This document shows positions 16,380 to 59,970 of a stretch of 64,000 nucleotides of DNA, piece after piece (the first letter of the stretch is position 1; each line of letters starts with the position of its first letter). Source of the DNA: Paramecium tetraurelia (lineage: Eukaryota); the NCBI GenBank assembly GCA_000165425.1, contig CT868024.1, positions 186,001 to 250,000 on the forward strand, in the 5' to 3' direction. The position numbers and the translations under genes are program-made. A model generated the notes under the pieces. That model was not told the DNA's origin. It ran no database searches and was given only the letters and a program-made list of their open reading frames with translations.

Positions 16380-19300
16380 TCAATAATCAATCATTTCATA
16401 CAACTTTTCCCAAGCCTTCTCTTTGCTCTTAGCATAAATATGCAATTATGATATTTCATAATATTTATCTTTTTTGATATTGACTATCTGGGCTTCTAAC
16501 ATATCATAAGGAATGAACAATTTATCTCCTTAGGATACTCTTCTGTAATCTTAATGTGGAATTTTGATCAGATTAAAATTGAAAGGGTTTCCTATGTTAC
16601 TTTAATACCTAACAATAAATGTTATTATTACCATTGATAAAATTGATATTTTGGTTGTCTCTTTATGAAATCAGGTGAATAAAATTGTTATACTTAAACA
16701 TTGTCTAATATTAATGTAGCCCATTGCATTACAATATTTGAACTGCAATTCGAATCCAGGTAGATAGCACCAACAAGAGCAAAGAAAGCAGTTTCTAAGC
16801 ATTGTGTATGTATAGATTTCTAAATTTTACCAATTTTAAAAGCTAAGGATGAATCTTTACATTTTTCAACTTCACTTGCTAAATTTAAGAGGATAGTTGA
16901 ATAGATGCTATTCAAATACTACTACAAACCAAGTTGAATGGCTAAATATGCTAGAAATGGAGTTTTCGAAAGAATCTTTCCAACAATTTTAATTGCAAAA
17001 CAATCTATTAAATTTTACTTTAATATATACCCAAGTTGTTCTCATTCAGTATTTTAATTGTTAGATAATTCCATAATGCTTTACCTAACATTGCTAAGAG
17101 TGAATTTTCATAATTATTCTAGTCTGTTTCATTCATGCATTCAAATTAACTTTTAAATTCAATCCATTATTATTCCTATATCATCCCTTGAAATTCTTCC
17201 TTCTTTTAAAATTGTTCATAATACTTGAATTTTAACTTGTTATTAATCACAAATTTAAATGAAATATCAGTCATTGCTTAAAACAACAATTCAAAGTGTT
17301 TGAATTAGTATTTTATTTTATATTCAAGAGAAGAGAACACTCTTTTAATTTTCCTAGTCTATTCGCTCAGAGGCACAAAACCAGGCAGGAATTCCTATAA
17401 ACATTATGATGAGTTCACATGAATCTTCATAGAAGTCATTATTCGAAAGGTTCTAAGCCAATTTAGACCGTTGACTAAATCCTAATCATTCTATTAGATT
17501 AGAAATAATGAGTTTTGGATGAATTAAAAGAATTCCTAATTTGATATATGAATCTTATTTTTAATTGTATTTCTCTATGATTTCCTTTTGGCTACTGAGA
17601 AATCATCTAATATTAATTATTCCATCATCATATCAAAATTATCTTGGAATTTCTCTAGCCCAATAAATTGTGTAGTTATATCATTAAGATCGTTCTTATG
17701 TAAATAGAGGAAGAGGTAAGACTCTAGCAAACAATTCCTTACATAAGTGCTTCTTGTGAATGTTTTATATTTAGCTCTGGTAATATTGATATCATTTTCA
17801 AAATAATTAGCATACAATACAACTGCTATAAGGAATTTATAATATTGATGGCCTAATAGTAATTCATTATATTTATGAGACGACAAATCCAATGATTTGA
17901 ATAAAATTTCATCCAATCTATCTTTCACATCAAAATTCAGAACAACATCAGAAACGCTATAATGTATAAAATTTAATTGCAATGAATCCAATTCATTTTA
18001 ATAGCAATATTGGAGAGAAGTGAGATACTTAATGTATTTACTAGTGGAATTCAAAACTTCATTTATATGAGGTTTGATATTCTAAGGGATAATCTAAATT
18101 TTTTGAATTAGCTATTCTTTAATTTTATCCTGGAATAGATCCACTTTGAATCTTAAAGCAAATTGATTGATGATTTAGCTAAGTGTGAATTTACTCTTGA
18201 CTGAACCCTTTAATATTAGAAGTAAATTCGAGTTGCTCTCACTTTTAATTCTTATTTAACATTCTAAAATTAATAAAAATGGTATAATTACTTTGATTAA
18301 TAATTGCATATATGTCATCTCTCCATTATTGTAAGTTTTCTTCTTTGATTATTGTCTCCACATATTTTTTATAATGACCTTCATATTAACTCTTAGAAAT
18401 CTTCTACATTGATTAAAATTAAATGCCAAGAGCTTACAAAGTGTTTTCGCTCTTACTGATTTGAGGAAGCATTTGTTTTGGAAAAGCCAACAATATTTTC
18501 TCGTTCTAAAATAGACATTCATAAAGCAAGAAATCTTCAAACTAACCTTCTTAATCCTTTGTTTAAAACAGGGTTTTGAATAAATTAGTATAATATCTTT
18601 TTTATGAATTAACCTTCCCTCCCATTGTAGATTAACTTTGCACCAACCTCTAAGAGTATTTACATGCTATTTGCCATTATTCTCTTGTCTATTAAATTTA
18701 AGATAATTATAGTTACCATCATGATTTAAGAATCATCTTAATCTGCCCCAATGTGTTAACCCAAATCACTATCGAAACAGATTTGTAAGTTGTCATCAAT
18801 GTATCCTTTCTAATATAATTACACTGATGCTTCAAATGCAGCTGATGCTTTGGCATCTTTAGAAGATGGAGCAAGTTTTCCATAAAATATGAAACTTTTC
18901 ATTGATATTGGGAGAAGTAAAAAGGCTATGAACTACTGATTCGTCTATGCATTTCCATGCAATTAATAAATTGCATATTTAGGCTAAGTCTTATCAGCAT
19001 CCTTTTAGTTGAACTTCTAACACAATTACTATATTAATTAGCAAGACCAGTTTGTATTGATTAGAGCACCCGAGCCCTCAATTTCAAATGAATCAAAATA
19101 AGTGTTTTCATAGGTTTTGCTCTCTGGTGAATATAAAAAAATAATTACATAGAGTTTGCATCGCCTTATTGAGCATTTGCTATCTTTAAGGAGCAGTCAA
19201 TTCTTCAATAATCTACTTAATATTGTTTTAAACTTGTTGATGACTTTACACTTAAGCTTGCTATAACTTGTCAACCATGAATATCATAAACTATGAATTT

Positions 19301-21351
19301 TCCTTTCTAGCTCTACCTTTCATTTAAACGTATGCCTTTGAACTTGAGATTGGATTGAATCCAATAACATAATTACACATTGGAATATCAATACCTTCTT
19401 CTGCCACAGATGTAGAAATTAGAATCTTGATTTTTCCTTATCTAAACTTATTTATAATGTCATTTTAAACTGTAGAACTAATTCTATAAGCAAAAATGTT
19501 CAATCTATTGACCTAGTCTTTAAGCTATTCAATTGAAAATTTGCTTTGATCATTTTATAATTCAGCATATAGTTTTTTAATTAGTTCTTCTTAATCCTCT
19601 TTATTGGATTCAATCACATTGATCATTATGCTATTATTCTGTTTTCTCACCATTGAGGAACAATGTCCTATTATAAAATTTGATACAATATCTAACACAT
19701 AATGTATGAATCAGTACTTATTCTCTCTGAAGCCAAATATTCTTCTATTAGTCTATTTAAAAAGAAGGCTGTAAGCCTTTGTTTCACAAAGATCAAAATT
19801 CTGCTGTTATCATCTCCTTATGAATAAGCTTTTCTTATAAGTTCAAATAAGACCTGTACTTTAGGAGTTGATGATTGTTACACATTCGAGTATCTTAATT
19901 TTGCATCCTTTAATATGGTCGAGATTGATTTTAAGATGTCTAAGCAGGCAGCTTAATTTGGGGGTCTCTTGATGGTTAAAAAATCATTTAACTTAATAAT
20001 AACATATTCCACCAATAATACTACCAATATATTATATATGTATACCAAATAAATATTGACCTAATTCTAAATACATTTAAAACCCATTTATTAGGACTTA
20101 TTTCTCAATTTATGCAATTAGGATTTTAGTTTATAAATCATATGAGTATTTTTTTTTGAAATTTTCCAATGTTTACTTTATTTAAAAAAACTCAGTTAGA
20201 TAGGAGTTTCTTCTCATTACATCAAGAGCCTTATTCTCATTTTTCTCACAATTAGTGAGTGATGCCTTTAAATCAATTACTTTTTGGATGTCAGGATCAT
20301 TGAAAAGCATCTTATAATAGATAGGTACAATCTAAGCCTCTTTTATATGTTTCTTAAGGTTTTAAGCATCTATATGTAAATATTATGAATCCATATTTGC
20401 TGATAACTAAAGCAATTCTTATAATAGTTAATTGTTGCTGACTGATTTACTATTCATAACAGGAGAAGCAGTTGCACCAACAATTTATGGTAAAAATTGA
20501 TTATCAGACTAAAACTTAGTTTTAAGGTAAAATTCTTTTAAAATATAGTTGTATGGATGATCTTATATTGCATTATGACATTCATCCATTGCAATAAAAC
20601 TGAAATTAGAGATTTTCACCAATCCTTTTCTTAAAATGTTGAGGAAGATTTAGGTAGTCATTACTAGAATTTTACTCTCCTCTAAAATAATTTGCCACAT
20701 AATTTAATTCCATATGTCAGTGCATTTACTTCCATGTAATACATTTAACTTGGACCCAATTTCCTTAGCCTTCACTATCATACTATCATCGTCGCTTATT
20801 AATTCAGCAACTCTAGGCAATTTCTACTTAATTTGCTAGGCCTATTATTCTACTAATTAAACGGTATTGGCTAGAAAGACTATCTTTTTATCAGGATATT
20901 TAAACAAACGATCCCACATCAACATAATAATGACTAAGGTTTTACCTAATCCTGTTTCCAAATAGATGATAGAATTCTTGCCAATTCCCTTCTCATATAA
21001 TTCTATTTAATAATCTCGAAATTCAAACTCTTCAATAGTATCTACGATCGTATCATCCTCTTCTAATAGATTGACTTTATTGTTAAGTATTTCTTAGTTG
21101 TTAGAAATCGATGACAGCATTTAATCAACTAAAGAAGAAAGCGAATCCTTAGGTTCATTTTGCTATTCCTGGCTCTCTGAGATATCCAAATCAAACAAAT
21201 TTTCTTCTGGCTACTTAATAACATTCTACAAAAATTGAGAGATTTAACTTTTATCTTCTTCATCGTCATCTTCAATTAATTTAACATCAAAGGAATTATG
21301 TTAGAGATCCATATTCTCCAATTTCTTATCGTCTGCAGGTAATTCGTACAT
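16380..21351 (-). CDS. Dicer-family protein (DExH helicase + helicase C + Dicer dimerization/DUF283 + two degenerate RNase III domains); resembles Paramecium Dcr2/Dcr3
   Basis: FRDYQIELY, IIYLETGLGKT, IAMDECHNA, VGATASP, ILIFVKQR, LISTSVAEEGIDIP, VQMKGRAR; DUF283-like KDAKASAAFEASVQLYQKGYIDDNL; RNase III-like segments ending ALVGAIYLDS. Confidence 0.92.
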
Positions 21352-21398
21352 TAATATTACGAGTAATAAAAAATTACAATATATATATAAATATTTGT

Positions 21399-23064
21399 AT
21401 GAACGAATTTTAAACATTTTTTGTCGGTTTGGGAGATCGATAATATACTCCCATTTCGGATGAATACAGAAAATAATTTAAGATCAGAGGTGACTTCATC
21501 TACCCATCTAATAAAAAGTTTGATCAAATTTGTAAGAGGTTGAGTATATTAAACTCATTTATAGTTTTTTAGAAGATGAAAAATTGAGAAGCAAAAGAAA
21601 ATGGGACAACTCTTTTAAATTATTTATGATTTGGTTTCTGGTTAAATATTTTGAGAAATAGAACCTTACTAATATTCTTCCGGTATCATGAGAAAATACA
21701 TCATAGGATGAGAATGACTGGGTTAATTTCGAAAATATCCTTAAAATTGACAGACATTCATTAAAGCAGAGATGGATAACCCTCATAAACCCACAGATGA
21801 AATCAACTAACTGGCTTCAAGAAGAGGATGATTTCATCAAAACACAAATGAAGTAGTCTAATCAATTTAAACATAGCCAAAAGCATAAACACATTTGGAC
21901 ACAGATAGCAGTCTCACTATACGAAAGAAATCTGTAAGGTAACATACGAACACCTAAACAAATAAGGGAAAGATGGATGAATTATCTTAACCCTGAATTG
22001 AATAAGTACAATTTTCATTGTATTCTCTTAGAGATCAATGGATGCTCAAGGAGGATTTGATTATTCTCAATAACGTTGTAAAGAATGGAAAGAAATGGTC
22101 CTAAATTTCATAATAGTTAAATGGAAGAACAGAGAATTAAGTCAAAAATCGGTATCACTTGTATTTATATCTTAAGCTACAAATCTCTAATTCATAAAAT
22201 ATGCAAAGATGATGAATGTGATGAAATTGATATGGTTAAACAATACATAAGAAAAAAGTAAGATTTAAATAATTTAATTCTAGTCAAGCTCATGTGGATT
22301 CCAATAAGTAAGGAATCATAGGAAAAAGAGGTAGGCATAAAAAAGGAATAAGAAGTAAAGACTAAAATGTTGAATCAAGAAAATAAAGAAATCTCCCAAA
22401 AATCATAAAACAAGAAGAATAACTATCACATTAATCATTTAATTAACCAGCATAATTAATTATTTAATAAGCATAACAATAATAGTAATAGTAATAATAT
22501 TAGTAATAATAATAATAATAATAGTAAACTTAACAAATGTAATTGTAACAATTACAATAGTAAATGAATTTTAATAATGAAGAAATGAAGATTGCTTTAA
22601 ACTTACACTCTAATTTCCTTTAAGAAGATATGAAAAATGCAACACCTTTAATGATGATATAATGTTTAACATCACCTGGGTATCAATTTTTAGAGAATCA
22701 ATTCTTAAAACAATTATCTCCAGGAATAGTTGAGGAAGGAGAGTGCAATCAGAATTCCTCTTTGCAATTACATAAATTAAATAATATGTATAAAGCCAGT
22801 TCCGCTTCACCATTTTTGTTGCCCTCCATGTTGCAATCTCCATTTTGGAATAACGAATAATATTTGTAGTAACATGATGAATAAATGGCACCGCCTATGC
22901 AGACATAGTAATTTACATAATAGATATCTACTACTCCTTTTTTGAATTTAGGTTATTTAGGAAAACCTAAATTAAATGGTTTTTCCAATAAAAAAGAACT
23001 AGACTTATTACAAGAGAACCCAATTTAATCATTTAATAAAAGAAGAAATCTTAATTAATAGTGA
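21399..23064 (+). CDS. Myb-domain transcription factor with poly-Q tract
   Basis: NWLQEEDDFI...HIWTQIA...RTPKQIRERWMNYLNPELNK|DQWMLKEDLIILNNVVKNGKKWSQISQQLNGRTENQVKNR; about 6 tiny introns. Confidence 0.92.
22474..22527 (+). repeat. (TAA/TAG)n trinucleotide run encoding poly-glutamine
   Basis: In-frame taa caa taa tag taa tag taa taa tat tag taa taa taa taa taa taa tag taa inside the Myb CDS. Confidence 0.85.
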
Positions 23065-25224: not shown

Positions 25225-27315
25225 TCATTTATTTATTGATTACAATAAATCTTCTGAGTCTTAAAGAATATTTCGAATTCTATCAAAATTATGATATTAC
25301 GGTTTAAAATTATCATTTATATCTTATTTGATTTACATAGGTTACTGAGGTTAATAAGATAATTAACTTGAAACTTTCAAAGGTTAATTTGATATGTTAT
25401 GATTTTAAATTGGTGTAACATAATAAGGATTAGGAACTTATGAATAAGTAATTGGATTTATGGGTAGATTCGCAGCATTTATTGTTTACATTTAATTATT
25501 GGGTTAGTAGGGTGTATTTAAAAGAGGATTTGTGTAGTTATACTATTAAATAGGTACCTTTGGGACATCTGCAGTTTATATTGCTCCATTTATAGTTTAA
25601 TTAGGAACTCCTAATGGTAAATTTTTCGATTAAATTTCTCTTTTTGGAGTGACAAAATCATAAGTTTAATTCTAAGAATTTATAATAGAAAATTTATTAC
25701 TTAAGCAGGGTATTTTTGTATTGGAATTTACATATTAGGTACTTAAGGCTATAAAGTAGTAGAACCTAATGGGATTTGTGGGGATTATTGTTATTTTTAG
25801 AATGCTTATATAGTTGAGCCATCTATTGGTTAATTCAGAATTGTAGGAGATGGACCTACAATAACATTGGGATTGCTTAGAACTGAAGAGGGTGTCTAAT
25901 TATAAGTTTGTGCTAATTGATAGTTAGGAGATATATAGGTTGTGCTGAAGGTATCTTGTTGTATTGGTTATTGAGATGATGGAATTAATTAGGATTATAA
26001 CATTAATTTTGAAATAAGTTTTGGTTGTTAGTTAGTAACTTAAAATTATTGTTGGGTAAGATTTGGATCTTAAAATTAGAATTCAGATTTTTGTTAAAAG
26101 AACATGGGTTAATTTCCTAATTTATTATGTTCTATAAAGTTATTTTATGGATAAATGTTTGGTTGGGATCTTTAAGACTCAATATTGTTGGCTTATTAAT
26201 ATGATATTTACTATTTGATTTATTATGTTTCAATTTGTCTTGGGCTTTATTAATATTATTATGTTTCATAAATAATTTCTGATTAAGATCGTTAATGTTA
26301 CTGTGAATTGGATAGTTGACTGTAGCGATATGGAAAACTTTCAATAACAGATTTACACTTCAGCGTGTTATTTAAAGGAAGCGCATTTTATTTTACCGCT
26401 TCATAATTAACAACAAAGTCTTAGAAATTAAGTATTTTGCTTTGGTATGGTTTGAGGATATAATAAACATCATCTATGGTTAATTGGTTTGCTGATTCTG
26501 CCATTAATAACTCCATGATTCGAATCAATTAGATTGAGTAATGGTTATAACATTAATTTTGCAATTCATTAATTTGTTGTTCATCTAATTATTTTTAATC
26601 ATTTAATTGCATCAAATCTAATAAGGTTTTCCCCAAAGCATAAGAATCAATTGAATTCCATTGGATTTTGGGTTACTAATTTTGTAGCAGTTGTTTTTTG
26701 AGAGATGGAGGAAGATACGTTTCTGTTTTATTGTTGATAAATTTATTGATTGAATTTTCTTAATCAATTATTATTCCTATTGGACATAATTTTATTTAAC
26801 CATTTGATTTTAAGGAAATTGTGACTGGTCTAATATCTTAATGGTTGTATCCCTTCTGCTTCAATTCATAGAGAGCATTAGTAATTGACCAGAGAAAGTA
26901 CCATAATTCCTTTTCAGAAAATCTTTCTGAATGTTGTTTTCTATGCATTAATTCCCTACTTTAGTAAAATGAATTACTTCTCTAAATTTTGGGGTATGTA
27001 TTCAAAGTAGCTTGAAATAACAGTAGAAGTTGAGCAAAATTCTGATGATTGCTTTTCAATGCTTCCGTAATAATCGATTATGTAGGGAGCTTGAATTTTT
27101 TTGATCATTGTTTGGAACTTCAGCCAGGGTTCATCGGATTCATGATTAAAAACTCTATAAGGGAATTCAATAACCATCTCTTGGTTGGCATCATTGATGT
27201 AGATTTATCCGGTTTTAATTTCATTTTTTAAATCAATTGGCTTGAATTGGCTTTAGAAAGTTTTAAAGAAAGAAGAAGAAATGGGATTTGATTATGAGGA
27301 TGCAGATTATCCCAT
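25225..27315 (-). CDS. N-myristoylated pseudokinase with a long Q/P-rich tail
   Basis: MGQSASS...SYFEYIPQNLE|...FSEKELWYFLWSITNALYELKQKGYNHQDIRPVTI...QIKLCPIG...IDSYALGKTLLDLM; 23-nt intron near 26955-26977. Confidence 0.8.
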
Positions 27316-27674: not shown

Positions 27675-30600
27675 ATGAATTCGAAGGGCAAAAGGACTTT
27701 AGGTACATGATATAAAAAATATATGACAGGTCCAATTTAAAAAATTAACAAGCCGTCGATCGATTTTGAGTCAGCTCTAAAGGAACATCGAGCAGTGGAG
27801 GAAAGAATAAAAATGGAAACTGACAGTCAAGATCCGAGGTATTTAGAGTAACATATGTATTTAAGGAAATTTGTAATGAACCTGTTGAATGATCGTGATA
27901 ATTCATTAATAATGGATAATTCCCTAACTCATTCGCAAGTGGCTATAAAAAAGAAAGTATTATTGATAATTAATTTAACAGGTGTACATACGTTCAAGAC
28001 AGGTTAAGAGTCAAGTGCCATTCATGTAAATGTAGACGAAGAACAACTCCCAAATTTAATTTGCATCTCCTTCTTAGAGTTTGAAGTTTGACTTTGATTT
28101 GAAACCCGATTTCAATTCTAAACGATCGAATTTTGTTCCCAAGTTTATAAATTCAGGAATCAATTTTGACGTCGAAGTAAGAGGAACACTTGGAGAAGAG
28201 TTTACAGAGTTTCAGATGTGTAATTAAGTAATCAAATAAATTAGATGACAATGACTCATAACCAGAAGACATCCCAAAAAATAAAAACTTTTCTTATGGA
28301 GGCAGAATGACCAATAAAAAACTTAAGGAATACGATTGTTGGGATGAAGAAAGAACTCCTTAAGAATGGTTAGAAATATGTAAAAAGAGCAATCCTCCTC
28401 ATGCAAAATGTCCAATGTTTGATTAATCAGACAAATACGTTTGGACAGATGTGGAGGTGTTGGGTTTTGAGAATGGCAAATTCGAAGTCAAGATATTGAG
28501 ATCAAGCAAAATCAAACGAATAGGCAGATTGTCACTATAATTCAATTCAGAAGATCCTGTCAAATTCGAATAAAGAGTTGAATTGTGTAAATAAAGATAA
28601 AAGAATGCTGATGATGAATTGAGATTCCTTAAATATGTGGACTCTTTGCCTGATTCAATGACATCGACTTTATCTCTTGAAATGCAGAAAAAGATCGAAG
28701 AATACACAGTTTTTAGAGATTTGCCATACATAATCAAAGAAGATCCAAGCAAAATAGCTCCTGGGTTTCCACAGATTTAAAATCTCAAAGATGAATTGAA
28801 GTAGATGATCACAGATCCAGAAATCAGAAGGAAACAAATGCAACATCTTGAGTTGCTTAAAAAAGACTTGGTGAAATAAGTTCAAAAAGAATATATCATG
28901 CTCATGAAGAAGTGTTCAATTCTCAAGGACATGGAAGTCAATAAGAATGATATCAAGTGGATTTAATTAAGAATCAAGAACAGATTTGAATAAACCAAAA
29001 GGCCTTATCATGGTTTAACTAAATAGTTTGCGAGTGACACTAAAATTCTGAGCTTCGAATCTCTGGGCCAATAGACATCAAAGCAAGTGAAAGTTCAAGA
29101 TAATTGGGCCTTTGTTGCAATCAGATAAAACATCTCACAATTACATTATTCAAAATTCACTGTAGTCGTTAACACATTGAATGCTTTAACAGCCAGATCC
29201 TAATTGTATTAGAATTTCCCACTCCTTAATGTATTGCTTAATCATTAATCTTTACCCATGGCTTTGTCTAATTTCGAAAGCTAACAAAAATAGCATAATA
29301 TCTAAGGAAGATAAACTCTGTAGGTGTAATGGCGTAGCACTATTGTTGGAGACATTCAAGATAAATTAAGAGAAAAGTATAGATTCTATTAAACTGAAAC
29401 TGAGGACTATTTGGATAGTGAATTGTAAAAATTACTTATTCGAATCGACTATATGTTTACCAATTATATTAGAGAAAATGTAGTTCGACAAACTTGCTAG
29501 TCATGGATTGATTTTCTAAAAAAGTTCACGACTCCAAAAGACGGGGAATAATGGAAGATTAATGATTATCCTTTATTGATTTTAAATCTTGAAGTCAATC
29601 TCAATTTCAAGAAAAAGAAGAATGACAAAAAAAATAAATAAGATGATACTCCTTTGTTGATGACAGATGAGGATCCCAATAGTGCCATTTACTTTTCTCC
29701 TAATTTCTCTGCCATCTAACAGGGTTTGTTAAAGCCAATAGATCTTTTATTGGAATCAGTGAATTCCTTTAATAGACTCGAAAAAGATTTGGTTCCATTG
29801 GTGGATATTGATTAGAAAAAGGAGGTAAAGGGACGATTGAGAGCTTACGAGATTGAAAATGACAAGGATTAAATGTGGATTAAGTGGGCTAAGGATAAGG
29901 TCTAAGAATATCTGGAGATCGGTTATTAGAAACCTAATTAAATGCTATAAAAGTTCAGGGAATTTAGTTTCTTATTAGAAAAGTCTGTTCAAAGTGTTCT
30001 AAAAAGTTTATTTGGAGATGTGTCGAAAAAACCTATCATAACCTCATTGGATAAGGATGAGATATCAAAAAAGTTATCTGATTTTATTAATGCCAAATTT
30101 TAAATACAAAGATTATGTTTGGATGAAAAGAATGAATAATTTTTTTAGATTAAAACTAGAATTGCCAAAGAAAATTTGATCTCAAAAGCCAATGAATTTA
30201 TCACATCCATTTTGAAACAGTGTTCAGATATTGTGACTGACAACATTAGTCGTTTAAGTTAGGAATATAGCGATATGAGTGATAGAATTACAAAGCAACC
30301 CAAAAATGAGGCTGAATTAGTAGAATTAAAATCTTATATAGCAGAACACGAAGTTAATTTGGCAAAGAAGAAATAAGAGGTGGATTGTATCTATGATTAT
30401 TTGACCATGTTCGAAGACATGAGTCATAATTTTGAAGATAAAAACCTCTATGAGTTTTGGAATTTATATAGTTTCCCTCCTGAAATTAAAAATCATGTGA
30501 TCGAAGGTCAAAGAAAGGCTAATCTATAAGAGTAAAAGTTTATGGAAAACTTGGATAACGAGAAGGATAAGTTCCAAGGAGAATTGAAGGAATTGACAGA

Positions 30601-33600
30601 ATTATTCTCAACTGTCTAGAAATTTGATGACTATTCAAGAGTAAAGGATTTTGCAAATGATGTCGTATCACTCAATGACCGTTTCTAAAATGCCTAAAAG
30701 AAGGTAGAATCATTTAATGAGAGAGAAATACTGTTTAAATAATAACCATCAGTTTATGAAGATTTGAATTAATTGATTAAGGATTTCACTATTTACTTCA
30801 ATTTGTGGACTAATGCTATTGAATTTGAGTATGATAGAAGTGATTGGTGTACAGGTTCATTCTTGAAGCTAAATTTCACTGAAATTGAAAACAAAGTTAG
30901 AACCAACTAAAGGAATGCCAATTTACTTATAAAGGCTTTCTCTGATGCACAAGATGACACAGCCGTAGAAGTGGCACGCAAGTTGAAAGGTCAAATCGAT
31001 GAGTTCAAAGAGAGATTGTGGTTGATTGAATTACTGACCACTGAGGCTATGAAAACTAAGTTGAATATGTGGAAAGACATCTGGAAGATTGTTGGAATTG
31101 TTGATCAAGAAACAAATGACGATTTATCATTGGATGCTTTGGTTTCTCACGGCCTTATGAATTTTAGGAATGACATCGAAGAAGTGTCAAGGAGAGCTGA
31201 GAAATAGTGGTAAATAGAAAAGAATCTCAATTCAATTCAAGAGAAGCTTAAGGATTAAAAAGTAGAAATGATTCCATACAAAAAGACAGGAACCTTTGTG
31301 TTGAAATCTTTAGAAGAAGTAGTGTAATGCTTTGATGATTAATTCAACATTCTATTGATGTTAAAGGCACAACCTTAAATCAAAGCTGTATTACATAAAG
31401 CATAAGCCTTGGAGTAAAAGATAGTGTTGATTTAGGACACACTTGATGGTTGGATAAAGTGTTAAAGAGGGTGGATGTATTTGGAACCTATTTTTACTTC
31501 TGATGATATCAAGAAGAAAATGCCTTAAGAAACCTTAAAATTTTAGAAGGTGGATACTCATTGGAAATAAGTGATGGAATAATTCAGCAAGGAGCCCAAT
31601 CTTTGGGACGGAGTAGAAAGTGATAAGATGAAGAATGAATTCGATTAGGATAATAAGGCTTTGGATTAGATTTAGAAATCTTTAAGTGAGTATTTGGAGA
31701 CAAAACGTAACTCATTCCCAAGATTTTATTTCTTATCAGATGAGGAACTATTGGAAATCTTGGCATAAACCAAAGATCCAGAAACAGTGTAGAAGCATAT
31801 TAATAAATGTTTTGAAGCCATCAACTTAATTAGAATTTGTAAATGGATAGGAAGTGGTAGCCAATGATATCAGCAGAAAAAGAAAAAGTACAATTTTTCA
31901 AAAGGAATTAATGTTAATGAAGGTGAAAAGAAAGGTAATGTGGAAAAGTGGTTGTGTGAAATTGAGTCTGTTATGATAGACACATTGAAGAAGATTATGA
32001 AAGCCTCACATTTGGATAACGATACAAAGAGAGTTGTTTGGGTAAGGAAATGGCCTGCTTAAATTGTATTGGCAGTTAATATGATCAGATGGACCAGAGG
32101 TAGTGAGCTGGCTATAAATGATAAAGACAATTAATAAGGAGGATTGACAGGATTTTTATAACAATTGATTAATGAACTTAGAGATATTGTTGATTTGGTT
32201 AGATAAGATTTGTCTCCTTTAGAGAGATTAACATTGGGTGCACTTGTTGTGTTAGATGTACATGCAAGAGATGTAATTAGACAACTAGTAAAAATTGGTT
32301 GCAATGATATTAACAATTTCTAATGGATGGCGTAATTGCGATATTATTGGACTGAATAGATAATGAAATGCAATGTCAAGATGATCAATGCTGATTTACT
32401 CTATGGATATGAGTATTTGGGTAATAGTATGAGATTGGTCATTACACCTTTAACTGATAGATGTTATCGTACTTTGATGGGAGCATTCCATTTACAGTAT
32501 GGAGGTGCACCTGAAGGTCCAGCAGGAACAGGAAAAACAGAAACTGTTAAGGATTTAGCCAAAGCATTGGCAGTTCAATGTGTTGTGTTTAATTGCTCTG
32601 ATGGTTTGAACTATTTAGCTATGAGTAAATTCTTTAAAGGATTGGCAAGTTCAGGAGCTTGGTGTTGTTTTGATGAGTTCAATCGTATAGATTTAGAAGT
32701 GCTCTCAGTTATTGCTTAATAAGTGCTCACCATTTAGGATGCTATCAGACAGAAGAGACCAGAGTTTGAATTTGAAGGTACCTCAATTAAATTGATTCTG
32801 TCATGTGCCATTAATATTACAATGAATCCAGGATATGCAGGTAGATCCGATTTACCCGATAACTTAAAGGCTCTATTTAGACCATGCGCTATGATGGTTC
32901 CAGATTATGCATTGATTTCAGAAATCTATTTAGCATCTGTAGGATTTTAAGATGCCAATAATCTAGCACGTAAAATTGTGGCCTCATTAAGATTGTCATC
33001 CGAACAACTTTCATCCCAGGACCATTACGATTTTGGTATGAGAGCCTTAAAAGCTATTTTGACAGCTGCAGGTAATCTAAAAAGAGTTATGAATGACATT
33101 GAAGATATCATATGTTTAAGAGCCCTTATGGATGTCAATATTCCAAAATTCACAATAAATGATGTGCCCTTATTCAATTCAATTACCTCAGATCTATTTC
33201 CAGGAATCAAGTTGCCTGAATAAGATTATGGAGCATTGGAGACAGCACTCAAAAATACGGCATAAGAGATCAACATTCAAGCAGAAAAAGGATTCATTGA
33301 AAAGTGTATTCAATTATTCGATACCATAAATGTTAGACATGGTCTGATGATTGTAGGATAAGCATTTGCAGGTAAATCCAAAGTATTGGAATGTTTGGCC
33401 AAAGCCATGTCTTCATTAAATAAGGTGTAATCTTTTGTGAACGTTGCTGTGCTCAAACTTAATCCAAAATCCATTACTTCAGATCAGTTATATGGTAAAT
33501 TGGATCCAGACACAAAGTCATGGACTGATGGAGTCATTGCTATTATTATGAGATAGTGTGCGTAAGATGCAGAAATTGAAGAAAGGAAGTGGGTTGTATT

Positions 33601-36600
33601 TGATGGACCTGTTGATGCAGTTTGGATTGAAAATATGAATACCGTATTGGATGATAATAAGAAGTTATGTTTGACATCTGGTGAAATCATTAAGATGACA
33701 AACTGGATGACTATGATGTTTGAAGTTGAGGATCTTGCTGTTGCATCACCTGCCACTGTTAGTAGATGTGGTATGGTCTTTTTAGAAACACAACAAATTG
33801 GATGGTATGCCTTAGTCAAATCATATATATAAACAATCCCTGAAAAATTCATAGAACATCACTATTTGGATGATCTATTAAGAGTCATTATTGATGCCAG
33901 TTAGGAATGGTTGAGGAAGAATGGTAAATTCCCAATTTACAAGAGTGAAATGACTCTGGTGAAAAACATGTTACTGATACTCCAAACTTATTTACAGGAA
34001 TGGACAGACATAGATGAGAAAGCATAATAGAAATAAATTAATCATAATGAAATTAAGGATGTAGTCTCTAAAGCTGTTCTATTTTCTTGTGTTTGGAGTT
34101 TTGGTGCAGCCATAGATGAAGTGTGTCGAAAACAATATAATTTATTCTTGATTAAGTTGATATCTGCAGAAGATGTTCAAGAGACCTTCAACTTATAACT
34201 GTAATATAAATTTACACCTGTCTCTATCAACGCTAAATTACCAGATAAAGCTAATCTATTCGATATGGTGTATGACAGAAATAAAAACAATTTCATCAGT
34301 TGGACTCAAACATAGCCTCCATTTGTCATTCCTAAAGGATGTGACTATCATGATTTGCTCATTCCCACTAGTGATTCTATTAGAAATAATTACTTTCTGC
34401 ATTTATGTGTAAGAAATAAGATACATTTATTGGTATCTGGACCAACTGGTACTGGTAAGACCTCGAATATTGTTAGTGAAATCAATAAAAACTATTTTAA
34501 CACTGAATATACAAATTTGATAACTGCGTTTTCAGGTTAAACTCTGGTCAATTAAGTCTAAAAAACTATAGAAGCAAAAGTTAACTCAAGGAGAAGAAAG
34601 GGATATTTTGGACCTGAGGAAGGCAAAAAATACATTGTTATATTTATTGATGATTTGAATATGCCAGCCAAAGAAAAGTATGGGGCATAACCTCCGATAG
34701 AATTGTTAAGGTAGTGGATGGATACACAAGGTTGGTATGATTTAGAAACTAAAGAACCTAAGTTTCTTCAAGGAATTACTTTTATTGCTAGCATGTTGCC
34801 ACCAACAGGAGGAAGAAATGTAGTAAGTATGAGATATTTAAGACACTATGTTCTCTTATATGTTGAACCTTTCGAAGGAGATTCATTACAACGTATCTTT
34901 TAAAATGTGTTGGAATGGTATTATGCAAGACAGACGAATCCATTTATGAAATCAATCACAAATCTCAGAGATTAAACAGTGAATGCAACTCTTGATATTT
35001 ATCAATTAATTCAGACTTGTAAGGAACTTTTGCCAACTCCAGCCAAATCACATTATATTTACAATCTTAGAGATATCAGCAAGGTGTTCTAAGGAATTTC
35101 TAAAGGAACTATTAAATCTTTCAGGGATGAAAATGATTTCATAAAGTTATGGGCACATGAATGTCAACGTGTGTTTTAAGATAGATTGATTAATGAAGAT
35201 GACTAAGGAACTTTCGACAAAATATTAAAGGAAACCATTTTGAAACATTTCAAACGAGATTGGAAACAATTAGTACAAATAGAACCACTCTTATGGGCTT
35301 CTTTTGTTCCCACCCTCTATCCTGATGATGATAAAACAAAGAGACCCATGACTGATATCTATTGTGAATTAACAGATCGAGAGACACTTAAGAAAGTATG
35401 TCAGGAACAATTAAATGAATACAATTCATAGTACACGAGTAATCGAATGGAGTTAGTGTTATTTATGAATGCAATCCAACACGTGCTTAAGATAGTGCGT
35501 GTGGTCAACACAACATTTGGTCATGCTTTGTTGGTTGGTGTAGGAGGTTCGTGGAAGAGAAGAGTTTGGCCTAATTGGCCTCCTTCATTGCATTCTAAAA
35601 TGAAACATTGCAAGTGGACTCAAGAAATTGGATTGAAGAATTGCAGAAGGTAATGAAGATGGGAGGAATAGATCAAAAGGAATTTGTGTTCATGTATTCG
35701 GATACTTAGATCATTAAGGAATCGATGGTTGAGGATATTTGCAATATCTTGAATAATGGTGAAGTACCTAATTTATTCCCACCTGAGGAGAAAAGTAAAA
35801 TCATCGAAGAAATGAGTAGTTACACATCTGGAACTCCAAACGAGAAATATAGTTATTTTGTAAAGTAGTGCAAGAAGAATTTGCATCTTGTGATTTGCAT
35901 GTCTCCTGTAGGAGAAGCATTTAGAAGGAGATTGCGTACCTTTCCCTGCTTTGGTTAATTGCACAACAATCGATTGGTTCTTGCCATGGCCAGAGGAAGC
36001 CCTTAGATCAACAGCTGATGCAGTGTTTACCAAGAGACATTGAACCATCTCGACTCTGACACTAAATTGAGATTGGGTTTGGTGGATGTAGCAGTCGACA
36101 TGCAAATCAGAGTGTCTGATCTAACCAAAAGATATTACAACGAATTAAGAAGATACTATTATGTTACCCCAACATCGTATTTGGAATTGCTCAACACATT
36201 CAAGAGACTCAAGTCAGACAGAGATCAAAATATGTCCAAAATGATATCTCGATATGAGGCAGGTGTAGATAAGATCATCATTACAGAAAGTGAAGTGAGC
36301 AAAATGTAGAAGGAATTGGAAGATTTGTAACCAAAATTGGAGTAGGCTACTAAGGACAACAGTATAATGTTGATTAATTTGTAAAAGAAATAGAAAGAAG
36401 CTGATGCAAGAAAGTAGGTTTGTCAATAAGAAGAGAAAGATTGTAATGTACAAAGAGATGGGGCAAATGCTTTGAGAAATGATTGTTAAAATGATCTAGA
36501 CAAAGTGTTGCCCATCTTGGCTCAGGCTGCTGAAGCTTTGGAAAAGATTGATAAAAATGATATGGTTTAATTGAAATCATTCCCTAAGCCTCCTCCTTCT

Positions 36601-39600
36601 GCTGCCATTGTCATGGAAGGATTGTGTTACATCTTTTAGGAAGATTAAAATGTGCCTTGGAAACCAAAAGAACCTGGCTCGATGGAAAAAGTGTAAGATT
36701 TTTGGGAGTATTCTAAAAAGAATCTTTTGAATGATAAGTTGATTAAAAGAATTAAGGATTTCAGAGATGATTCAATCAGATAAATTCCTTAAGTGAAGAT
36801 CAACAAATTAAAGGCATTCTCATAAAACCCATTGTTTTAGAAGGATAAGGTGTTTAATGCATCCGTTGCAGCAGGTAATTTGAGTTTGTGGGTTCGGGCT
36901 GTTGTAGAGACTTATGATGCTTTATTGGTGGTGGATCCAAAGAGATAACAATTATTGGAGGCAGAGTCAAAGTTAAAGGAGGCAGAAGAAACTCTTAGAG
37001 TGAAGTAGGAAGCATTACAGGAAGTGCTTGACATGTTGGCTAAGTTGGAGGCCGAATATAATAAGGCAAAGTAAGAGAAGGAGGACTTGGAAGCTAAGGT
37101 CAATAAGTGCAAAATCTAATTTGAGTAGGGCTGAGAAATTAATTACTGAATTAGGAGGTGAGAAGGAGAGTTGGAAGAAGAAGGCTGCTGATTATAGAGT
37201 TGATTCTAAGACAATTGTTGGTGATTGCATATTGTCATCAGGAATTGTGGCCTATTTGGGAGCATTTCCAATTGCCTACAGAGATGACACAATAAAAATA
37301 TGGTAGACTTTGTTGGAGAAATTGACTATTGAATTCGATCCTGAATTTTCATTGCAGAAGATCTTGTGTGATCCAATCACAATGGGACAATGGACAAATG
37401 TTTAAAAATTGCCAAATGATTCGTTTTCTATTGACAATGCCATCATTCTTAAGAATTCCACTAGATGGCCTTTGATGATTGATCCTCAAACCTAAGCTAA
37501 TACTTGGGTTAAGCATATGGAAGCTTAGCAATTAGTAATTGTGAGACCTACCCAATCGTAAAATGTGTTATCAAAGACCTTGGAAAGTGCCATATAATTT
37601 GGATAGAGTGTGTTGTTAGAAAATGTAGGTGAAACCATTGATGCTATCTTCGAATCTATTCTCTAATAAAAGATCATCAAACAAGGGTCAGCTTACAAAT
37701 TGAAATTCGGAGACAAAATGATTGACTACTCCAGAGACTTTAAGTTTTACATGACTACTAAATTGGCTAGACCTCATTATCCCCCTGAAATTTGTGTTAA
37801 GGTTACTATGTTGAATTTCCAAGTAACTCAGGAGGGTTTGGAAGATCAGATGTTGAATATTGTTGTGAAGATCGAGGAACCTGCCAAAGATGAGCAAAGA
37901 TAAAGGAATATTAAGGAATTCTTTGAAAATAAGAATAAGTAAAAGATGACAGAAGATAACATTTTGCAATTGTTGCAGGACTCAAAAGGAAATCTTTTGG
38001 ATGATGAAGTATTGATTGATACTCTGCAGAGATCGAAGGCGGAATCAATCACAATTTAGGATAAGTTGAAGAAACAAGAGCAGGATAGGGAACAATTTAA
38101 TTAAATTCGTAATTTCTACAAAGAAGTGGCCAAGAGAGTTGCTAATCTATACTTTGTTGTTTTGGATCTGTCCTTAATTGAACCTACTTATCAATGGTCT
38201 TTGGAGTTCTACATCATACTATTTGAGAGGGCCATTCGAGAGTCAATATAAGGAAAGGAGAATAGAAGCAAAAATATCATTGATAAGTTTTAGATATCCT
38301 TATACGAGAGTATTTGTAGATCTCTATTGGAGAAGGATAAGTTGATATATTCATTTTTGATGACAATGAAAGTGATGCAAAGTGAGGGTAAGATTACTCC
38401 ACAAGAAATCCGTTTCACTATGGTTGGTGGTACATACACAGATCCAACATATCCATAACCATAACCAGAATGGATATCGAAAAAGATGTGGTGTCTAGTA
38501 ACTGAAGCAGCTGACACTCTGCCATTCTTTAAAGGATTCCCTGAATCATTCTCTAAACACCTCTCTGATTGGCAAGAAATCTATGATAGCAGTGAACCAT
38601 AGACTCAACAATTACCTGAACCTTGGAATTCATAATTGACTGCTTTCTAAAAGTTGATTGTCTTGCGTATCATCAGACCTGATAAATTTGCAAATGCCAC
38701 TCAGAATCTGATCATAACAGAAATGGGCAAATAATTTATGGATCCTCCCCCCTTCAATCTAGAATATGCCTACAAAGACGCAGATGCTTATACTCCACTG
38801 ATATTCATATTGTCTCCAGGTGCTGACCCTCGTTTGGAAATATCAACATTGGCTGATCGTCTAGGATTTAGATAGAACTTCATTACTCTCTCCTTAGGTT
38901 AAGGTCAAGGAGAAATTGCCACTAATGCTATCAAGGGAGCTGTCAAAGATGGCAAATGGGTTTTATTGTAGAATTGCCATCTTGCACCATCATTTATGCC
39001 TGAATTAGAAAGAATTCACGAATAAGAAATATGTGCAAAGCCAGCTCAAGAGGTTAATTCAGACTTTAGAATTTGGTTGACTTCTATGCCCTCAAATGTA
39101 TTCCCAGTAACACTATTAATGAGAGGCATCAAGATGACATACGAACCCCCAAGAGGCTTAAAAAACAATATGTTGAGAAACTTCTCTTCAATTGATGCCA
39201 AGAGTTTTGAGTAATGTAAGAAACCTGTGGAATGGAAAAAACTGTTTTTCGGTTTGAATTTCTTCCATGCTGTGTGTCTAGAACGTCGTAAGTATGGACC
39301 TCTGGGATGGAATATCCCTTATGAATTCACATCAGCAGATCTAGCCATATCAGTGTCTTAATTGAAAAACTTCCTTGACACTTTCGAAGATATCCCTTGG
39401 GAGGCTCTTAATTACATGGTTGCTGAAGCTAATTATGGAGGTAGAGTCACAGATCCCAAAGATAGAAGATTAATTAGTATTCTGCTTAAATAATTTTATA
39501 CAACTGACGTATTGTAGATTGACAAACATAAATTAAGTCCAAGTGGCATTTATTATGTTCCTCCAAATGGAGTGTTAGAAGATTACAAAGAATATATCAG

Positions 39601-40658
39601 AAATCTCCCTCTGAATGATTAGACTGAAGTGTTCGGACTACATGATAATGCAGAGATATCATCAGCAATTATTGAAACTAATTTCATTACATCAACCATA
39701 TTATCCTTATTACCAAGATCAACAGGAGGTTCTGGTGTGTCTGCTGAAGACTTAATCAAAGAGAAATGCAAACAAATCTTATCTAAATTGCCTAATTAAT
39801 TCAACGTTGAGGATGCTGCTCGTAAACATCCTGTGCAATACAATCAGAGTATGAATACTGTCTTGCAATAAGAGTTGATTAGATTCAACAAATTGTTATT
39901 AGCTGTTAGACAGTCTCTCATCGATTTAGGTAAGGCAATCGATGGTTTGGTCGTTATGAGTACAGATCTGGAGCAAGTGTTCAATAAAGTGTTTGATAAC
40001 CAAGTCCCGGATGTGTGGCACAAAGTTGCTTATCCCTCACTTAAACCACTAGGATCATGGATCAATGACTTTATTGACAGATTGCATTTCATGCAGTTGT
40101 GGATTGATAATGGAGCTCCGCCAACCTTCTGGGTATCTGGGTTCTTCTTCACTTAATCATTTTTGACTGGAACTCTTCAGAACTTTGCTCGAAAAGTATG
40201 TAATTAATTAATAATTTAGTACCAAATCCCAATTGATACACTCTCCTTTGAATTCATAGTGATTCCTCCTTCATCTCAAGAATACGATCTTACAAAACCT
40301 CCTGATGATGGATGCTACGTTTATGGTCTGTTCCTCGATGGTGCTCGATGGGATGAGGAAAATAGATGTCTCAACGAAAGTTTACCAAAAGTACTCCAAT
40401 ACAAGGTGCCCTACTTATGGCTATTACCAAGTGAAGAGAAGAAGGATTGGGATGCTGATATATCGGTACGAATACTCATCTAGATCTTAGGTTTATGAAT
40501 GTCCAGTCTACAAGACATCGAGAAGAGCTGGTACTCTATCAACGACAGGTCACTCCACCAACTTTGTCATTTCTATATATTTACCCATTTCACCAGATCA
40601 TCACCCATATCATTGGGTCAAAAGAGGAGTGGCTATGCTATGCTAAACTGATGATTGA
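27675..40658 (+). CDS. Axonemal inner-arm (single-headed) dynein heavy chain, DNAH1-like
   Basis: [26 protein letters not shown]1 [19 protein letters not shown]2 GQAFAGKS, P3 GPTGTGKT, P4 GVGGSGRK (after indel correction), C-terminus [23 protein letters not shown]...[18 protein letters not shown]; several +1 indels; subfamily call inferred from the N-terminal QFNSEDP..F..R motif. Confidence 0.96.
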
Positions 40659-58244: not shown

Positions 58245-59970
58245 TCATAACTAGGTTATTAAACAACCTAAAGATGACTTTTTTTGGCTTCGAGCTTCCA
58301 TAATTATTTTTTTAACAGGATAATTATCTTATCGATGTAATTAAAATGAACTTTGTGATTGAGATTTAATGATTTGAACATTATGAAATTCATCTTTCTT
58401 TTCTGAATAATTCTAATTCGGAGTTTTTATAGCATAAGATCGACTTGGAGTAACAGTTCTTGAATTTTTGTAGGAATGAATGTTTAATGATTAATATTAT
58501 TGTTGAAATAGATTGTGTAGAGAATCCTAATTCAAAATTGGAGGTCTTTGAGTTTCAATCTAAGAATTCTAATAAGAGGTCTAAGCTAATAATTTATTCC
58601 TCATTGATTTCAATTTCCTTAAGTAATTATCCTTCTCATCCTTGCCTTCTCTCGACTTAAAAGCAATTCTGTTCTTTTTTCTTGAAGACAGACTTTGAGC
58701 CTATTCATTTTTTCTCAATTACGATTAAAGATTGACTGGCTGATAAAAATAATTTTAGATTTTTTGTTTCAACTATTCTAAGTTAGTATCTGATTCTATC
58801 TCCTCCCTTGCTTACTATTATTGAGGAATGACTTTTGTATTCCTAATGGTTTTCAATAAATTTTAATAAGGATTACAAGATTTTGGTTTGAATTCTGGAA
58901 CAAAAACAGTTTCTGGATTATCAAACTCCTCTGAATTTTCTATTTTTCTTACCTAATCTTATAACTTTTCAATTCTTTCCTTTAATATGAGTTTAGTTTA
59001 TCTTAAATACTTTTTCAATAAAACCGAGTGATAATTGTCTGCTATCTACAAGTATTAGAATAGTGGGACTCTGTAGACTTCACTCACCGTAGTAGAAACA
59101 GCATCAGTAGATCTGCGAATATTGTCTAACTGATTCCTATTTTAGTACCATGACTGATTATCGATAAACTCATAATCTCCAAAACATTGTCCAGTTCCCA
59201 AAGTCACAAGTCCATAATCTTATAATTTCCCTTTTACTTTTATTTTCTATTAAATTAATATTTCCCCACTCTTTACTACATAAAATGATTTATCATTCTG
59301 TCCTTCTTTATACACATACTGATTTCTTAGGATTGTAATTAATTTCAAATGATGTATGATCAATGCCAATGCCAATTCGTTCCATCCATAGAAAATAGCT
59401 GTGGGCTTTAATTGGTAATACTGAACTGCAATTAGATGATCTATCACAGGTTACAAGAAGTTGTAATAGGCCTCATAGCTGATAACGAGAAGTACAGAAT
59501 TGCATGCACATACAACTGTTGCTGTTCTTGGAAGTCTATGATGTAGGCTCACTTCTCCAAAATAATCTCCAGGAACTAATACAGCTGCAGGTTACTTATT
59601 CTCAATAATATTAAATTGTCATACTGATTTCCGTAATCTCATAAGGGAATATATTCAGATTGCCATCCAAAATAAAATACATTTTCCTTCCTACTTCCCC
59701 CATGGTGAAAATTATATCCTTCTCTGAATGCATTTCAACTTGAAACTGTTTCATGAACATACGAAATTTATCTGTGCTTCTCAAGTATCTTTAAATTTTA
59801 GAACAAATTGGAAATATTTTTAGCATCTATTTCTCGAGATATTGCATGTCCTATTCACTTTGGTTCGATAACGCATTCAAAATATTCTTTACAGTGACCT
59901 GATAATTGCCCTCTGCAAATATTTTGGTCATGTTTTTCAGTAGTTAGACTTTCTAAACTGCCTTCTTCAT
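58245..59970 (-). CDS. Tandem cyclic-nucleotide-binding domain protein
   Basis: IIFTMGEVGRKMYFILDG...LVPGDYFGEVSLHHRLPRTATV; VYKEGQNDKSFYVVKSGEI...LGTGQCFGDYEF; start codon uncertain. Confidence 0.85.

Follow-up and report, generated by a model that had tools for sequence, protein, structure and literature searches.

What might a cell keep a Dicer for, if that Dicer has lost the residues with which it would cut RNA? The question is raised by a gene on the minus strand (16380..21351) of a 64,000-nt stretch of Paramecium tetraurelia DNA, referred to throughout as the window, whose predicted product joins an intact Dicer-type helicase to two RNase III-type domains that have lost their catalytic acids. 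The locus is the macronuclear DCR2 gene of P. tetraurelia, published in 2009. As the gene is the already published Dcr2, its recognition as a nuclease-dead Dicer is a rediscovery of what is found in Lepère et al. (2009, PMC2647294), who also raised the question of its use; no answer was found in the literature searched. The best overall explanation, which we consider probable, is that of a full-length, transcribed and frame-conserved DCR2 with a dead nuclease, likely serving as an ATP-dependent factor for double-stranded RNA (dsRNA).

The DCR2 gene and the catalytic positions of its product

The window is AT-rich, with a G+C content of 24-36%, and reads open only with the ciliate genetic code. 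On the minus strand, DCR2 extends from an ATG at 21351 to a TGA at 16380-16382 and consists of eight exons (21351-20046, 20020-19718, 19691-19149, 19123-18717, 18688-18292, 18263-17031, 17004-16632 and 16608-16380) and seven introns of 23-28 nt, all of which start with GTA and end with TAG or, in one case, CAG. Note that the introns were placed by the match to the annotated protein, the 58-nt RNA reads being too few to define splice joints. The coding sequence of 4791 nt yields 1596 residues, with 110 in-frame TAA or TAG codons read as glutamine and a single TGA, the terminal stop. The translation matches, at 100% identity, P0001, which the database lists as a macronuclear product of Paramecium tetraurelia. 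It is also residue-identical, wherever that row is readable (helicase, DUF283 and both RNase III blocks), to the sequence Dcr2Pt, starting with MYELPADDKK, in Supplementary Figure S1 of Lepère et al. (2009, Nucleic Acids Res 37:903, PMC2647294), where its accession is GSPATP00033115001; the row Dcr3Pt of the same figure is P0005. According to these authors, all four catalytic residues are mutated in each RNase III domain of Dcr2, Dcr3 and Tetrahymena Dcr1. The first-pass annotation of this DNA, made from the letters alone, named Paramecium Dcr2 and Dcr3 as known degenerate Dicers and overlooked that the gene in question is Dcr2 itself.

Two-metal catalysis by RNase III requires an E...D and a D...E set of residues. 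In a reference alignment of 19 active Dicers of ciliate, fungal, plant and animal origin, both acid pairs of RNase IIIa are present in all 19 sequences, and the E...D of RNase IIIb in all 18 that cover it. In RNase IIIa of Dcr2 the first glutamate is replaced by L1120 (or lost in a one-residue deletion, depending on the alignment), the first aspartate by H1124, the second aspartate by Q1232 and the second glutamate by Q1235, while the corresponding residues of RNase IIIb are A1376, K1380, T1468 and F1471. None of the eight canonical acids found in the active enzymes is retained, consistent with the published alignment of Lepère et al. and with the earlier claim that all metal-binding acids had been replaced. 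The signatures read by eye in the first-pass annotation were recovered within a few bases. NELLLGHQ, placed there at 17842-17871, spans residues 1118-1125 (17845-17868), and the second acidic pair, given as FQFIQ, lies in FFQFIQNS at residues 1230-1237 (17509-17532). For RNase IIIb, SLLAMLGK is found at residues 1373-1380 (17080-17103, against 17080-17105 before) and ETAFFALVGAIYLDS at residues 1467-1481 (16751-16795, against 16752-16800), all four on the minus strand. As a side observation, one of the two Dcr2 copies of P. sonneborni, P0004, carries a glutamate at the aspartate position of RNase IIIb (LLGMLGE).

The two domains differ in how well their fold can be recognized. The RNase IIIb pseudo-domain (PF00636; residues 1375-1481, 16751..17097, minus strand, split by the intron at 17030-17005) is matched by the Pfam family Ribonuclease_3 with 35.2 bits at a cut-off of 27, in a single stretch covering exactly these residues, and by hhalign with a probability of 97.4% (E 1.1e-11). 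The RNase IIIa-like pseudo-domain (residues ~1100-1262, 17434..17922, minus strand) has no Pfam match, and a phmmer search with exon 6, which contains it, returned no PDB sequence at E<=10. Its hhalign match is weak, with a local E of 0.0027 (probability 11%) and a domain-to-domain global E of 5.3e-6 (probability 70%), and its motifs fall on the same residues in collinear order in every alignment. A kept RNase III scaffold, as first claimed, is therefore well supported for RNase IIIb and, for RNase IIIa, by collinearity and a weak profile match. In the ESM Atlas the C-terminal half of Dcr2 scored 0.90 to RNase III/Dicer clusters, which we treat as a lead only. Lacking the required E...D and D...E residues, Dcr2 would by established RNase III chemistry be unable to dice dsRNA by the canonical mechanism. 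Judged by sequence, Dcr2 is a member of the Dicer family by descent and not by enzymology, and with its intact helicase the term pseudo-Dicer is apt.

The helicase is of the RIG-I/Dicer type and comprises residues 106-690 (19231..21036, minus strand), with an insert at about residues 301-500. As evidenced by Pfam and by residue-by-residue alignment with Arabidopsis DCL1 and AncD1D2, motifs I, Ia, II, III (TAS), IV, V and VI are all intact, as first read: LETGLGKT at residues 131-138 (20938-20961), DECH within MDECH at 255-259 (20575-20589), ATAS within GATASP at 292-297 (20461-20478) and QMKGRAR at 659-665 (19306-19326), all on the minus strand. Pfam detects ResIII (56.3 bits, residues 109-274), DEAD (53.7 bits, 114-297) and Helicase_C (53.7 bits, 603-664) in the whole protein, and the best PDB matches of the region are themselves Dicer helicases, namely AncD1D2 (1.4e-58), DCL1 (2.1e-46) and Dcr-2 (2e-32). 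The DUF283-like domain noticed behind the helicase is the Dicer dimerisation domain PF03368 (residues 744-831, 18783..19046, minus strand; 54.4 bits, cut-off 23.7).

Two further segments of the minus-strand gene match no known family. The acidic N-terminal extension (residues 1-105, 21037..21351), which has no Pfam family, is 79% identical in P. pentaurelia and 60-63% in the two P. sonneborni copies. The middle region (residues 836-1095, 17935..18770), which takes the place of platform and PAZ in other Dicers, was recognized by no family search: its exon pieces had no Pfam match at E<=1, hhalign against active Dicers gave a probability of 0.2%, and the ESM Atlas score of 0.80 is at chance level. 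In line with the earlier remark that no clear PAZ domain is visible, Pfam found no PAZ or platform family in Dcr2, either in the whole protein at E<=0.1 or in exon pieces at E<=1. PAZ is likewise undetected at E<=0.1 in P0010, an active Dcr2-like protein of Tetrahymena, and its absence is therefore a trait of ciliate Dicers and no mark of the dead ones.

Expression, constraint and relatives

DCR2 is transcribed at a low level from the minus strand. In three poly(A) RNA sequencing (RNA-seq) runs, 112, 144 and 78 reads were mapped and covered 27-28 of 30 bins over 5.6 kb at a depth of about 1-4, with the first mate on the plus strand in all three runs, which in the usual stranded libraries denotes a minus-strand mRNA. 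This low depth is consistent with the modest microarray values given for DCR2 in Table 1 of Lepère et al. (10.4 in vegetative cells and 9.6 in autogamy). The small-RNA run X24 contributed a single read to the region. A separate observation concerns the plus strand, where a transcript at 21336-21700 shows the opposite strand signature just upstream of the DCR2 start codon. From these reads we infer that a divergently transcribed neighbour starts nearby, within about 100-250 bases; eight of them have a loose end at 21683, which may be a splice site.

The constraint on the protein was assessed from protein identities and a drift simulation, in place of the ratio of nonsynonymous to synonymous substitution rates (dN/dS). 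Whole-protein identity of Dcr2 is 84% to P. pentaurelia and 72% and 74% to the first and second of the two P. sonneborni copies (P0003 and P0004). The most conserved domain is Hel1 with 91%, 86% and 88%, respectively; the values are 83%, 68% and 71% for RNase IIIa, and 74%, 61% and 65% for RNase IIIb. Residues 1096-1596 align with no gap across three aurelia orthologues. To this stretch of 501 codons we applied random substitutions in 300 runs per level of identity, ignoring insertions and deletions, which would only worsen the outcome under drift. The frame escaped interruption by TGA in 46 of 300 runs when drift went to 80% identity, in 5 of 300 at 66% and in none of 300 at 40%. In addition, Q1232 and Q1235 are retained in all six aurelia Dcr2 and Dcr3 sequences. 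Taken together, the gap-free frame, the outcome of the simulation and the two retained glutamines indicate that the dead RNase III region is probably under constraint, less so than the helicase. In database searches, exon 6 alone matched five proteins among 1.84 billion representatives, all of them Paramecium-like, and a metagenome scan with P0001 returned 32 pattern-matching stretches, none of which encodes a relative. Within the aurelia group, the accessible part of Jenkins et al. (2021, Table 2) lists 20 of 22 expected Dcr2/Dcr3 copies as kept in 11 genomes.

The relatives of Dcr2 fall into motor-competent and motor-dead proteins. All four Dcr2 orthologues, P. bursaria Dcr2/3 and both Tetrahymena Dcr1 proteins carry helicase motifs I, II, III and VI in identical or nearly identical form. 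The product of the single Dcr2/3 gene of P. bursaria (P0007) keeps its helicase motifs intact and has none of the catalytic acids, and the Tetrahymena Dcr1 proteins (P0008, P0009) have kept the helicase motifs and lost most of the RNase III acids. In Dcr3 (P0005, P0006) not only the RNase III acids but also helicase motifs I, II, III and VI are gone, and Pfam found no helicase family in it. It is nevertheless full-length, and its P. tetraurelia and P. octaurelia versions share 83% identity over 1567 residues with three gaps, which makes it a doubly dead yet conserved Dicer.

The dead proteins have a C-terminal feature in common. The C-terminal domain (residues 1501-1596, 16383..16693, minus strand, split by the intron at 16631-16609) stands where other Dicers have their dsRNA-binding domain (dsRBD) and, with 59-61% identity, is the part in which Dcr2 and Dcr3 agree most. 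In Dcr2 it carries the signature I-K-x-P-H (1535-1539) followed by Y-D (1555-1556), which is found in eight or nine of nine dead Dicers, Tetrahymena Dcr1 among them, and is gapped in most of 18 active Dicers compared; the active ciliate enzymes do not have it. Pfam detects no dsrm family in Dcr2 at E<=0.1, and phmmer with a C-terminal piece found no match in the PDB, only the last 75 residues of that query being in frame. The 'PH' and the 'AKSKEKA' helix of the domain seem to us reminiscent of RNA-contact motifs in dsRBDs, a presumed likeness that no search supports. A second candidate, an N-terminal 'SSISN' motif common to Dcr2 and Tetrahymena Dcr1, was discarded as low-complexity and alignment-dependent.

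How old is the loss of catalysis? In a helicase and DUF283 tree every ciliate Dicer, Dcr2 included, falls into a single group at 100/99 (100/100 in the full-length tree), and P. bursaria P0007 branches before the split of Dcr2 and Dcr3 (100/99 and 99/97). The full-length tree, for which 1139 trimmed columns and a site-heterogeneous model were used, unites the nine dead Dicers at 100/99. As the P. bursaria protein is dead and predates this split, catalysis appears to have been lost before the duplication. For the deeper node, the approximately unbiased (AU) test on full-length columns rejected a single Tetrahymena Dicer clade (p-AU 0.0038). Two points weaken the case for an ancient origin, however: the 1139 columns include the RNase III domains, so that the argument rests on columns containing the trait itself, and with the 572 helicase and DUF283 columns the dead group falls to 77/79 and the alternative is unrejected (p 0.306). 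The shared C-terminal signature provides one independent hint of common descent. We regard a single old origin of the dead ciliate Dicers as no more than likely, and the grouping may already be contained in the supplementary Dicer phylogeny of Jenkins et al.

Possible functions of a nuclease-dead Dicer

Among specific roles for Dcr2, that of an ATP-dependent dsRNA-binding or translocating factor is the likeliest, with a chance that we put a little short of even. The helicase would bind dsRNA or translocate on it, driven by ATP, the dead RNase III pair would provide a platform for RNA binding or protein docking, and the protein would operate alongside Dcr1, the active Dicer, as well as complexes of RNA-dependent RNA polymerase (RdRP), while making no small RNAs itself. 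This role is favored because the Dcr2 orthologues, P. bursaria Dcr2/3 and Tetrahymena Dcr1 have all conserved the ATPase and RNA-contact motifs of the helicase, DUF283 and the C-terminal domain. The function proposed in the first-pass annotation, a non-cleaving and ATP-dependent sensor, translocase or scaffold for dsRNA, is compatible with these observations.

Several points weigh against it. The literature searched holds no biochemical or genetic result that gives Dcr2 a function, and a search by gene identifiers had no match. Silencing of DCR2 had no effect on the development of the new macronucleus (Lepère et al. 2009, data not shown), and these authors state that the function of the paralogues, "if any, remain[s] to be determined". 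In the accessible part of Marker et al. (2014), 71 lines deficient in RNA interference yielded alleles of RDR1, RDR2, DCR1, CID1 and PDS1 only, so that this forward screen produced none in DCR2. Table 1 of Jenkins et al. (2021), likewise available in part, assigns no pathway to Dcr2 or Dcr3. Within the excerpts available of each, Hoehener et al. (2018) mention Dcr1-3 in passing only and Marker et al. (2010) contain nothing on Paramecium Dcr2; PMC9275709 and PMC2287173 have nothing on dead ciliate Dicers. On the side of the protein, the homology of RNase IIIa is statistically weak, and Dcr3 has been conserved at 83% despite its destroyed helicase motifs. Since Dcr3 is a motor-dead and conserved protein, a member of the dead clade can persist without ATPase motifs.

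This last point favors a passive scaffold or regulator, by which Dcr2 would do without ATP hydrolysis and attach itself to Dcr1, to Dcr3, to an RdRP complex or to a Piwi protein. Such docking, for which DUF283, the dead RNase III pair or the C-terminal domain would be used, would serve to tune substrate choice or to sequester dsRNA. Beyond the conservation of Dcr3 in the same architecture, it is in line with the C-terminal domain being the best-conserved block between Dcr2 and Dcr3, with RNC1, an RNA-binding heterodimer partner (PMC9275481, available in part), and with the use of an apparently inactive RdRP, Rdr3, in Paramecium silencing (Marker et al. 2014, accessible part). The strict retention of all Dcr2 helicase motifs in four orthologues, P. 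bursaria and Tetrahymena Dcr1, and the 86-91% identity of Hel1, its most conserved domain, are hard to explain, however, if ATP binding and hydrolysis were dispensable, and we regard a purely passive role as rather unlikely, with perhaps one chance in five.

Two other explanations are far less probable. Dcr2 might be a cryptic nuclease that cleaves RNA via non-canonical residues such as E1119, E1467 or H1124; the two glutamates each lie one residue upstream of a catalytic position, and according to the accessible part of Marker et al. (2014) hypomorphic dcr1 mutations have little effect on some endogenous small interfering RNAs (siRNAs), those of cluster 22, so that there might be a second producer. 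These alleles are hypomorphic, however, none of the eight canonical acids is present, and the proposed substitutes vary: both P. sonneborni copies have asparagine in place of E1119, other relatives have Q, R or G in place of E1467, and L, S, C or K is found elsewhere in place of H1124, so that no alternative acidic constellation is conserved. We hold a cryptic activity to be highly improbable, and give still less credit to DCR2 as a decaying relic, a neutrally drifting duplicate whose annotation lingers. Decay would account for an RNase III region that evolves faster than the helicase, for the five Paramecium matches of exon 6 and for the absence of a reported phenotype (Lepère et al. 2009). 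It would have to be reconciled with an open frame and a gap-free RNase III region in three orthologues, where simulated drift preserved the frame in 5 of 300 runs at 66% identity and in none of 300 at 40%, as well as with transcription of the gene, the 20 of 22 copies kept in aurelia genomes and the relatives in P. bursaria and Tetrahymena.

The evidence on descent and on the ATP-dependent role can be joined in a wider scenario, which we offer as a possibility and regard as doubtful in its entirety. An old clade of nuclease-dead Dicers would have arisen before the split of Paramecium and Tetrahymena, equipped with a private C-terminal domain carrying I-K-x-P-H ... Y-D and engaged in ATP-driven sensing or handling of dsRNA. 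As part of the same tentative scenario, its ancestral job might have been to deliver substrates to Dcr1 and RdRP complexes or to withhold them, or to support those endogenous siRNA clusters on which dcr1 mutations have little effect. Within the aurelia lineage it would later have split into a motor-competent Dcr2 and a motor-dead Dcr3 acting together. Dead Dicers kept for long beside an active one imply that the Dicer scaffold is useful beyond the cutting of RNA.

Other genes of the window, and comparison with known systems

Elsewhere in the window, three long open frames at 28103-40495 on the plus strand contain DHC_N2, AAA_6, AAA_7, AAA_9 and Dynein_C and represent one large dynein heavy chain gene. 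Of two frames on the minus strand, at 25380-27104 and 58248-59618, one has a weak protein kinase match (32.7 bits) and the other two cyclic-nucleotide-binding stretches (62.1 bits).

The more distant counterparts of Dcr2 lie outside the Dicers. Plant RNC1, a splicing factor for chloroplast group II introns, resembles it in having two tandem RNase III domains without essential catalytic residues, which, according to the accessible part of a review (PMC9275481), bind RNA as a heterodimer with a partner protein. Unlike Dcr2, RNC1 is organellar, lacks both a helicase and DUF283 and does not belong to the Dicers; the two are alike by analogy only. RIG-I-like receptors and Dicer-related helicases (RIG-I, MDA5, LGP2, DRH) belong to the same superfamily branch as the Dcr2 helicase (PDB matches of ~1e-28 to 1e-22) and, as dsRNA-dependent ATPases without a nuclease, may be a working likeness of it. 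In contrast to these proteins, Dcr2 retains DUF283 and two RNase III-type domains and has neither a CARD nor the RIG-I C-terminal domain; Pfam at E<=0.1 found no PF11648 or CARD family in P0001, both of which are present in the RIG-I matches. The first-pass suggestion that the protein is functionally closer to a RIG-I-like helicase can be upheld as an analogy only, since Dicer helicases match at 1.4e-58 to 2e-32 and RIG-I, LGP2 and MDA5 at ~1e-28.

Among the ciliate Dicers, the active enzymes (Paramecium Dcr1 and Tetrahymena Dcr2; P0118, P0114, P0010, P0115) have the domain order of Dcr2 and, like it, no PAZ recognized by Pfam. They differ in retaining all eight acids and in a Ribonuclease_3 match of 131 bits in two stretches, against 35 bits in one. 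Paramecium Dcr1 is needed for 23-nt siRNAs (Lepère et al. 2009, PMC2647294; Marker et al. 2014, accessible part). Closer in kind is Dcr1 of Tetrahymena thermophila (P0008; P0009 in T. malaccensis), with intact helicase motifs, largely lost acids and the C-terminal signature. Its identity to Dcr2 is only 25-28%, it has a long N-terminal extension and, unlike Dcr2, it has one or two acids left at catalytic positions, such as an aspartate at the glutamate position of RNase IIIb; its gene, Tetrahymena DCR1, was reportedly found to be non-essential by Lee and Collins in 2006. The nearest paralogue, Paramecium Dcr3 (P0005; P0006 in P. octaurelia), shares 35-36% identity over 98% of the length, the architecture, the C-terminal domain and dead RNase III positions (Q..Q and A..K), and departs from Dcr2 in its lost helicase motifs and a long helicase branch of 1.17.

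The closest system of all is the Dcr2 of Lepère et al. (2009, PMC2647294), which is the same protein with the same domain order and led to the same conclusion of a dead nuclease. To that description the present analysis adds orthologue comparisons, RNA-seq coverage, trees and the C-terminal signature. It adds further that the same sites are dead in the P. bursaria and Tetrahymena relatives (in Tetrahymena at most of the acids), that Dcr3 has lost its motor motifs, that a C-terminal signature is common to the dead Dicers and that the frame has been upheld beyond the expectation under drift. These additions are small and amount to no new discovery; set beside the published description of Dcr2, they point to experiments.

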